Below the pieces are notes generated by a model. The model was not told where the DNA came from. It saw nothing but the letters and a program-made list of their open reading frames with translations, and did no database searches. DNA of 32,000 bases from Candidatus Odinarchaeota archaeon (GTDB lineage: Archaea > Asgardarchaeota > Odinarchaeia > Odinarchaeales > Odinarchaeaceae), in assembly GCA_016839265.1 (NCBI GenBank), contig JAEOUO010000002.1:90001-122000 (forward strand), in the 5' to 3' direction. The stretch's first letter is position 1, and every line of letters begins with the position of its first letter. Below, piece after piece: positions 24,886 through 26,694 of this stretch. The translations under genes and the position numbers were made by a program.

Positions 24886-25176
24886 ATGCCGTTATTTAAA
24901 GATGTGGAGAAAGTTAAATTTTTTGTTAAAAAAGTTTTCGACTTAGCTACAGAGTTGAAAATCCCTATTTTAGATGAGAAAACTGTTTCCGATTTGAAGA
25001 TTAATCCAGGAGCGGTTGCCTGGGTTATAGAAATGAAAGTTGAACCGGAGGATGAAACACCGATTAAAGCTTTTCTGGCTTTAGCCCAGTATTTTAGAAG
25101 TATAATTATTAAAAGAGGGGATGTATTCTATATACCGCACGGCTCTGAGAGCTATAAATTAGAATGCGCCGGTTGA
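24886..25176 (+). CDS. Hypothetical protein (96 aa)
   Basis: ORF with GGTGG SD-like site upstream and globular composition; no family recognised. Confidence 0.7.
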   Translation: MPLFKDVEKVKFFVKKVFDLATELKIPILDEKTVSDLKINPGAVAWVIEMKVEPEDETPIKAFLALAQYFRSIIIKRGDVFYIPHGSESYKLECAG

Positions 25177-25210
25177 TTTTATAGTCTTCTACAGCTTTAA
25201 CTTGCCGGCG

Positions 25211-25244
25211 GGAAGTCTTCTTCCGAGAGGGAGGGGTAATTCAC
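25211..25244 (+). mobile_element. Decayed IS200/IS605 right-end hairpin (GGAAG-stem-TAATTCAC)
   Basis: GGAAG-T-CTTCTTCC-GAGA-GGGAGGGG-TAATTCAC: 8-bp stem with three G-U pairs and terminal TCAC, same architecture as the copy at 26595. Confidence 0.6.
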
Positions 25245-25852
25245 GTCATACCAGTCATAAGCTTCTTAAGTCGTTTCAACTCTTTCAACATTTCGCTTTT
25301 AAGCGAGCTTACTGAAGTTTGATCCATTCCCGCCTCTTCTACAGACGCTGAAGGTATTTGTGGAACGCTTGCAGGTATAACAGCCGCTTGTACTTCAGGT
25401 TCCGTTTCTACAGCTTCAGCTGCTGGCGGGGTTGGTGCGGGTTCAAAATCCGGAGCCTTCGGCGGTGTGGATATGGAGGGTGTTTTTATTTCAGGGACTT
25501 GTATCCTAGGTGGCGTGGTTGGTGTTACAGATGGAGGTGGCGGGGGTGTTTGCTGAACTGCAGTGGTTTGAATTACAGGTTTACCTGTTAATAATGTCCA
25601 TAAATCCTCCGGGGACATGATTTCCCCTCTTTTAGATAGAACAGTTGTTATCACGGAGGTTGAGGTTGCTCTTTCACTAGCCGGTAGTTTTCCAAGCTCA
25701 ATTGATTTTAAATCTTTTTCAATTCTTTTTAAACTGTCTGTAAGTGTTTTCGTAGCTTCGTTGACTGTTTTAGAAAATTTATCAATCGCTTCTAGAAAAT
25801 AGTCTTTTATCCTAGATAGCACTCGGACCGCTTTCTGTGTTTCATCCTCCAA
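25241..25852 (-). CDS. Hypothetical protein: N-terminal coiled coil, proline-rich linker, C-terminal amphipathic helix
   Basis: 203-aa ORF, TTG start with GAGGGG SD; TPPPPPSVTPTTPP; ends SLKSEMLKELKRLKKLM. Confidence 0.8.
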   Translation of the reverse strand: MEDETQKAVRVLSRIKDYFLEAIDKFSKTVNEATKTLTDSLKRIEKDLKSIELGKLPASERATSTSVITTVLSKRGEIMSPEDLWTLLTGKPVIQTTAVQQTPPPPPSVTPTTPPRIQVPEIKTPSISTPPKAPDFEPAPTPPAAEAVETEPEVQAAVIPASVPQIPSASVEEAGMDQTSVSSLKSEMLKELKRLKKLMTGMT

Positions 25853-25980
25853 GATATTCCCCTCAATGTTAGCGTGAAATTTATTTATTTAAATTTATAT
25901 AATGTTAACTAGCGCTGTTATATTAATTTTTCTTAATATTGTTTACGTAATTTTACTACGAAATATAATATAACTTTTCC

Positions 25981-25988
25981 TTTATAAA
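25981..25988. promoter_or_regulatory. TATA-box-like TTTATAAA about 25 nt upstream of the tnpB/omegaRNA remnant
   Basis: Perfect archaeal TATA-like 8-mer, but palindromic; the purine-rich BRE-like run is on the minus-strand side, so orientation is ambiguous. Confidence 0.35.
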
Positions 25989-26006
25989 GTTCTTTTCAAC
26001 TCTTAA

Positions 26007-26063
26007 CTGTCTTACCATAATGGCGCTATGAACATATTCAAGCGAACTACGGGGCTGCCTTGA
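26007..26063 (+). pseudogene. tnpB: 3'-terminal stub of tnpB (RuvC-III motif remnant)
   Basis: Reads LSYHNGAMNIFKRTTGLP*, matching the TnpB D-x-N-[GA]-A-x-N-I motif with TAC (Tyr) at the catalytic GAC (Asp). No upstream tnpB sequence (in-frame TAA at 26004). Confidence 0.65.
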
Positions 26064-26157
26064 CACAGCTCGAACTGGGTAGGATGAAGCATAAGCTGGC
26101 AACCCTGGAATCTCCCGACTTTTCGATTGGCATAGAAAAATTAAAATATATTTTTTT
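26010..26157 (+). ncRNA. Candidate stand-alone TnpB omegaRNA/reRNA-like structured RNA
   Basis: 52% GC over 26021-26130 versus 14% over 26131-26220. Stem GGGCTGCC(26052-59)/GGCAACCC(26098-105), 7 of 8 paired. GGAAT-CTCCCGAC-TTT is the 5' half of an IS605-type right-end hairpin. T7 tract at 26151-26157. Confidence 0.55.
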
Positions 26158-26244
26158 AATTTTATATTTAGCTAGTATAAGTTAACATTTAATTGCTAAA
26201 ACATTAATATATCTGATTGTATACTCAGCTATCGAGGTGTTTTT

Positions 26245-26529: not shown

Positions 26530-26594
26530 ATTATTTTTAATAAAATTTAATCTTATTTTTTAAACTAATTTTTTAATATTATCGTGCCATACAC

Positions 26595-26627
26595 GGAAGC
26601 CCATGACTTTAGTCATGGGTAGCTCAC
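26595..26627 (+). mobile_element. Intact IS200/IS605 right-end hairpin (PATE-like remnant)
   Basis: GGAAG-CCCATGAC-TTTA-GTCATGGG-TAGCTCAC: GAAG guide, perfect 8-bp stem and terminal TCAC. TTAT lies just upstream at 26579-26582. No transposase in the window. Confidence 0.82.
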
Positions 26628-26694
26628 AACCATCAAAATACTTATATTCTTTTCTCAAATACTCTAAAATATAATTAATTACGGAGTGGTGGAA

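Follow-up and report, generated by a model that had tools for sequence, protein, structure and literature searches.

A probable relic of a miniature IS200/IS605 element upstream of rps25e in a Candidatus Odinarchaeota genome

A GC-rich patch precedes rps25e in the genome of a Candidatus Odinarchaeota archaeon, within a stretch of 32,000 nucleotides which was analysed as a whole (the window, whose numbering is used for all bare coordinates below). The reading preferred here, with a probability of about 0.85, is that positions 26016-26131 hold a fragment, decaying and no longer mobile, of a miniature element of PATE/MITE-like kind, derived from an IS200/IS605 parent with both tnpA and tnpB. As such, the stub is to be seen as a commonplace fossil of the genome rather than a functioning guide RNA, and relics of this sort are already a known kind. 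A first-pass annotation, made from the letters of this DNA, had proposed an orphan omegaRNA-like locus with its own promoter and terminator. The GC island on which it was founded is borne out by a GC content of 0.53-0.58 at 26020-26109 vs 0.12 at 26140-26199. The features on which the argument depends are the following, in order along the window:

25981-25988, no strand assigned: TATA-like box TTTATAAA, a palindrome preceding the stub by 27 nt, aligned with a box in stub-less relatives
26012-26015, + strand: target motif TTAC, directly abutting the stub; the same motif precedes the left end of intact and miniature family copies
26016-26046, + strand: leftover of the terminal tnpB codons (HNGAMNIFKR, from the RuvC-III region but lacking its Asp), from identity to the paralogue, translations and tblastn
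26052-26071, + strand: scaffold stem-loop 2 (GGGCUG / CAGCUC), kept, with a C>T change at 26070 that makes one G-C pair G-U, from the family structure and its covariation, the model alignment and invariant columns
26075-26108, + strand: scaffold stem-loop 3, inner hairpin and GAUGA...CUGA internal loop, from the family structure, the model alignment and invariant columns
26111-26122, + strand: from the terminal hairpin of the right end, the 5' arm with its loop (UCUCCCGAC UUU), up to the last homologous position, 26122
26123-26131, + strand: decayed or non-homologous remainder, the 3' arm and TGTCAA terminus being gone, from alignment to relatives and family
26151-26157, + strand: T7 run within AT-rich spacer; relatives have shorter, interrupted runs of T there

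Descent from an IS200/IS605 family

Homology to an IS200/IS605 family, namely to its last tnpB codons, omegaRNA scaffold and right end, covers the segment 26016-26122 (or as far as about 26131), and 26016 is its 5' limit against family members and against a second copy in the same genome alike. Residues 317-347 of a full TnpB match the tnpB remnant by tblastn. Judged by its sequence, the stub derives from a tnpB 3' end together with the adjoining right-end/omegaRNA region, as had been proposed at first pass; this is supported by homology to the ends of full tnpB genes and by a match of 39.4 bits (E 3e-8) to a covariance model of the family. The boundaries were partly misplaced in that proposal, which had taken the 5' end for a dead RuvC-III-like start with TAC in place of the catalytic Asp codon. 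The translation of 26013-26063 is indeed YHNGAMNIFKRTTGLP followed by a stop, and in this respect the proposal stands; the TAC at 26013-15, however, belongs to the flanking TTAC target motif, homology beginning only at 26016, and cannot be counted as a mutated Asp codon. At the corresponding place the second copy reads DHNGAMNIFKRATGLP and a stop. The right-hand description was confirmed, since GAAT is found at 26108-11, followed by the 5' arm UCUCCCGAC at 26111-19, and neither a matching 3' arm nor a TCAA or TCAC terminus comes next. Two reading frames which overlap the stub were rejected as genes: a 41-aa ORF at 26060-26185 is an out-of-frame tail of the tnpB reading frame, and an antisense 48-aa ORF at 25956-26102 spans the lineage-specific insert. 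No tRNA was found in the window with ARAGORN.

The family to which the stub is related was followed through public sequences. Matches of 81-90% identity occur in a Baldrarchaeota genome, only distantly related within the phylum, one of them at the end of a TnpB reading frame, and an exact 27-nt pattern of the stub is present in contigs labelled Archaeoglobus, Ca. Alkanophaga, Ca. Mnemosynella, Nitrososphaerota and Baldrarchaeota; the parent family is widespread among archaea of hot and subsurface habitats. In two loci (L020 and L023) this pattern ends TnpB reading frames of 365 and 389 aa with OrfB_IS605 and Cas12f1-like_TNB domains, each preceded by a Y1 transposase gene (tnpA), the elements measuring 1579 and 1590 bp. 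Elements of the IS608 type carry tnpA and tnpB, insert 3' of TTAC and have a right end that finishes in TCAA. The parent family shares this plan: tnpA is followed by tnpB, the elements begin just after TTAC and finish in ...GGAGAGTGTCAA (a TGTCAA right end), and TTAC (TAAC once) is followed after 5-6 nt by GTCGCTAAG in L002, L019, L020, L083 and L023. The parent is therefore assigned to an IS608-like IS200/IS605 family, which differs from the known type in that the archaeal family has its own four-stem-loop scaffold, and of which the window keeps an internal 107-116 nt only. A terminal module of 33 nt, GAATCTCCCGRCTTNAGYCGNGGAGARTGTCAA, recurs exactly in more than 120 metagenome contigs among the matches listed (including L027-L146), behind very different upstream sequences; in about half of these contigs no TnpB homology was detectable upstream (within 1.5 kb).

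The second copy, or paralogue, agrees with the stub at 93% of positions along the 107 nt of window 26016-26122 and constitutes a complete miniature element of about 244 bp (genome contig C1:270273-270516, equivalent to L002:1483-1726 on the - strand), composed of a left end matching that of full elements with flanking TTAC, a short tnpB remnant, the scaffold and an intact right end. It sits between glmS and aEF1A, oriented like the latter and preceding it by about 170 nt, and it holds the only occurrence of the left-end motif in the genome; its contig diverges from the window after 26122 (loose end AGTCGTGGAGAATGT). Further miniatures, of 246 and 348 bp, are found on L083 and L019. The internal deletion of the independent miniature L083 ends about 2 nt from the 5' limit of the stub, which fits the scaffold part being kept in such derivatives, and to this extent the earlier remark that roughly the scaffold part had been retained is upheld. 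A third scrap (C1:252027-252065) consists of the right-end hairpin only, so that a decay series of complete miniature element, internal stub and right-end scrap is seen within one small genome.

Erosion of the scaffold and search for protein partners

The structure of the family was obtained from an alignment of 23 non-identical members of the closest subfamily, from which the covariance model was built. The scaffold comprises four stem-loops with 35 predicted pairs, 12 of them with compensatory changes. Full members score 121-123 bits with this model and the paralogue 81.5 bits, both above the window stub. Within the stub, 13 of 65 family-invariant columns are changed, including 26046, 26070, 26099 and 26103, and the paralogue differs at 3 invariant columns when the four columns trimmed from it are set aside. 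Stem-loop 1 is deleted in the stub, a deletion also present in the paralogue; the outer stem of stem-loop 3 is weakened to 5/6 pairs, 2 of them wobbles, with two invariant A residues replaced in this stem-loop, the one in its CUGA by G (26099) and another by C (26103); and only the 5' arm survives of stem-loop 4. Nor does the stub retain the left end (about 133 nt), the TCAA cleavage end or the second (3') arm of its terminal hairpin. Taken at the level of the sequence, these changes indicate a conserved scaffold that is eroding, not maintained, in the stub. The GAUGA...CUGA/UAAC internal loop conserved in the family (stem-loop 3, alignment columns 84-109) looks like a k-turn and, if real, could bind L7Ae in archaeal omegaRNAs.

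A stem of 7/8 bp had also been put forward for the stub. The complementarity of 26052-59 and 26098-105 is present as described, at 7/8 positions; its reading as a conserved fold was abandoned, because the stem is absent from the family structure and two of its pairs rest on bases departing from the family, namely G 26099 (found in the window only, where paralogue and family have A) and C 26103 (family A, with the A>C change common to stub and paralogue). Moreover, an RNA of 146 nt from the locus is no stabler than shuffled sequences (folding z-scores of +0.24 for the + strand and -0.70 for the - strand). In Rfam, nothing in the window reached a gathering score, and between 25850 and 26700 only chance-level matches appeared at E<=10 (MIR812, RsaOG). 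The stub was matched neither by HgcC (RF00062) nor by other Rfam families; full family members and the miniature loci are likewise unmatched, and Rfam therefore cannot judge the parent family.

No protein able to serve such an RNA was recovered from the genome. The TnpB core domain (PF01385) gave zero matches in an assembly that is 97% complete in six contigs, in a gap of which a repeated IS copy could lie. PF07282 gave only two stop-containing fragments and unrelated zinc ribbons, two full TnpBs used as tblastn queries found C-terminal scraps only, and the Y1 transposase domain (PF01797) had zero matches in the genome. Other PF07282 or tblastn matches were rejected as TnpB, since they proved to be a ribonucleotide reductase with an intein-like insert, a TFIIB-like protein and small zinc-ribbon proteins. 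Within the taxonomic order, intact TnpB genes occur in one congener and in three genomes of a second family, and none was found here; the group therefore has this type of element, which is apparently extinct in the present genome. A broken TnpB C-terminus (L009, C1:431980-432189, - strand) scores 47 bits with PF07282 and bears one internal TAA; it has a right end of its own, finishing in TTCACC, and adjoins an apparent tRNA gene (by eye).

These results bear most directly on the proposal that the stub is a trans-acting omegaRNA, which would load a TnpB encoded elsewhere and guide it to a target. The sequence is scaffold-derived, with stem-loops 2 and 3 largely present, and omegaRNAs encoded by PATEs and acting in trans have been proposed (PMC10055086). 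Nevertheless, neither a TnpB core nor any other RuvC-bearing relative was found in the 97% complete genome, the terminal hairpin is halved, the TCAA junction which sets the start of the guide is absent, stem-loop 1 is deleted, and the invariant positions 26046, 26070, 26099 and 26103 are altered. The proposal could not be sustained against this, and is considered extremely improbable. The companion statement, that the locus can no longer transpose, agrees with the loss of the left end, of half of the right hairpin and of TCAA, and with the failure to find a Y1 TnpA. Of the marks of a mobile IS200/IS605 element or PATE, the stub has kept no more than TTAC and one arm (5') of the right-end hairpin; against those of a functional omegaRNA, the scaffold is incomplete, the right-end boundary is missing and no cognate TnpB was found. 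The stub should thus be able neither to move nor to guide a nuclease. Most likely it does nothing, undergoing at most passive transcription from an older TATA-like element in its neighbourhood.

Age of the insertion and the older TATA-like box

Congeners G001 and G002 align with the window on both flanks at 76-85% identity, and the site between these flanks is empty in them, measuring 20-24 nt vs about 135 nt in the window. The conservation in close relatives which the first-pass annotation had named beforehand as a point on which its reading depended is accordingly lacking. In a DNA search, no copy of the stub was found in three congeners (G001-G003). As the stub has no counterpart at the syntenic site, the element is concluded to have arrived after the split from the sequenced congeners, and on these alignments it appears specific to this species. 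The population was represented by contigs from four oil-field/hydrocarbon DNA runs belonging to three studies, in which the stub is invariant and in the same context. No joint of an empty site was found among them, although assemblies drop rare variants, and apart from the window form and the paralogue they contained a few short, low-depth contigs from other family copies. Being uniform and without an empty form, the stub is taken to be fixed in the sampled population, with the same reservation about rare variants.

The course of events envisaged begins once the lineage had separated from the sequenced congeners: a miniature element of the family would then have entered the spacer on the 3' side of a TTAC; its left end and right terminus would subsequently have been lost; and point mutations would now be eroding the scaffold. 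As regards the first of these steps, a piece of 110 nt might instead have been copied from a miniature element into a break during its repair, with no transposition followed by decay. Both flanks are almost intact in comparison with the relatives' empty site, with which the sequence realigns from about 26126-26132, and 26126-26142 matches the relatives at 14-15 of 17 positions, which would put the right junction inside the hairpin 3' arm with a degenerate 5-nt duplication of about ATTAG (by eye). However, the left junction coincides exactly with a TTAC in the right orientation, as expected of a true insertion that lost its left end, and junction placement is no better than about 5 nt, so that the two origins are not separable. 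Capture is therefore held to be the less likely of the two, while deserving serious attention.

The remaining question concerns expression. The TATA-like box and the T7 run had been offered as promoter and terminator, and both are at the places described, at frequencies no higher than chance in the window (4 copies of TTTATAAA found vs 3.9 expected, and 22 T7 runs vs 35 expected). The role of the box as promoter of the locus was not supported, since G001 and G002 have TTAATAAA at the aligned position: being present in stub-less relatives, the box predates the insertion. A purine-rich stretch adjoins it on its minus-strand side (by eye). In archaea a purine-rich stretch (the BRE consensus) is expected upstream of the TATA box. 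Given that the box is palindromic and has its purine-rich side on the minus strand, it may serve a different unit, perhaps one on the opposite strand.

What has to be counted against a mere relic is the geometry, which fits a small transcription unit with the box 27 nt upstream of the stub and T7 about 30 nt downstream. An exapted or passively expressed small RNA or leader would arise if the older box fired on the + strand at about 26009-26016; the product would then be either about 140 nt long, with its end at T7, or a distal rps25e leader, and may have gained a regulatory role. Several observations are in keeping with this: the positions of TTTATAAA and T7 fit, the substitutions at 26099 and 26103 both add pairs to the 7/8 stem, and the stub is fixed in the sampled population. 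That a relic can be expressed is moreover known from transcribed orphan tnpB tails in other archaea: for H. salinarum, Gomes-Filho et al. 2015 reported a truncated tnpB pseudogene of 120 bp that is probably transcribed, as well as a PATE-derived RNA and intergenic Pyrococcus RNAs of tnpB-tail origin, with sRK48/sRK52 in P. abyssi (PMC4615843). Nevertheless, the stub is not conserved in congeners, its fold is no stabler than shuffles and the conserved scaffold is eroding; the box is palindromic with the purines on the wrong side for the + strand; and rps25e has a proximal TATA-like element of its own, about 35-40 nt before the ATG and conserved in relatives. An expressed product of this kind is therefore thought improbable. 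Its most ambitious form, in which an omegaRNA scaffold halved and set at the start site of an older promoter, in an Asgard-type archaeon without TnpB and TnpA, would now play a new, nuclease-independent part in the form of a roughly 140-nt small RNA or a distal rps25e leader, is given even less credit. The reading as a decaying fragment of a miniature element is accordingly retained.

Relation to known elements and further observations

Gene-less, PATE-like IS200/IS605 elements encoding omegaRNA have been described (Meers et al. 2023, PMC10055086), and haloarchaeal PATEs are cited there and in PMC4615843. The stub resembles PATEs in coming from a gene-less deletion derivative which keeps the tnpB tail and the right-end scaffold, the paralogue being a complete example. 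It differs from them in that the window copy is without left end and half of the right hairpin, and in that no TnpA or TnpB was found. With these parts missing, the window copy is to be regarded as a fragment of a PATE and not as a member of the class. Similarly, like sotRNAs and other tnpB-tail ncRNAs, including HgcC, the stub is an intergenic orphan consisting of a short tnpB 3' end, and the terminal hairpin of its parent family is of their UUCA/UUUA 'RE-like tetraloop' type, whereas the hairpin of the window copy is incomplete and the stub has no Rfam match. Among the public runs listed as containing this DNA none is an RNA run, a result which weighs neither way. The case illustrates that a GC island with a TATA-like box and a T run nearby, in the AT-rich spacer of an archaeon, need not be an RNA gene. 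A by-product of modest value is an archaeal omegaRNA/right-end family absent from Rfam, defined by four stem-loops, 12 covarying pairs, TTAC and the 33-nt terminal module.

Some observations in the vicinity are recorded in their own right. The intergenic block 25905-25990, which includes TTACTACGAAATATAATATAAC and the TATA-like box, is nearly invariant in three congeners, while coding DNA reaches only 76-85% identity; such conservation could reflect either a regulatory element or a small RNA. Between rps25e and purC, 26575-26637 (+ strand) holds the right-end relic of a different IS200/IS605 family, with a perfect hairpin around GACTTTAGTC and the end TAGCTCAC, which resembles the end of a broken TnpB locus at C1:185443 (L010) and has no counterpart in the syntenic spacer of either G001 or G002. 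Finally, a third hairpin (GGAAG-TCTT-CTTCC) with a ...TTCAC end is located at 25202-25245 (+ strand), in the spacer after the gene at 24886-25176, a spacer that does not align with that of G001 or G002.
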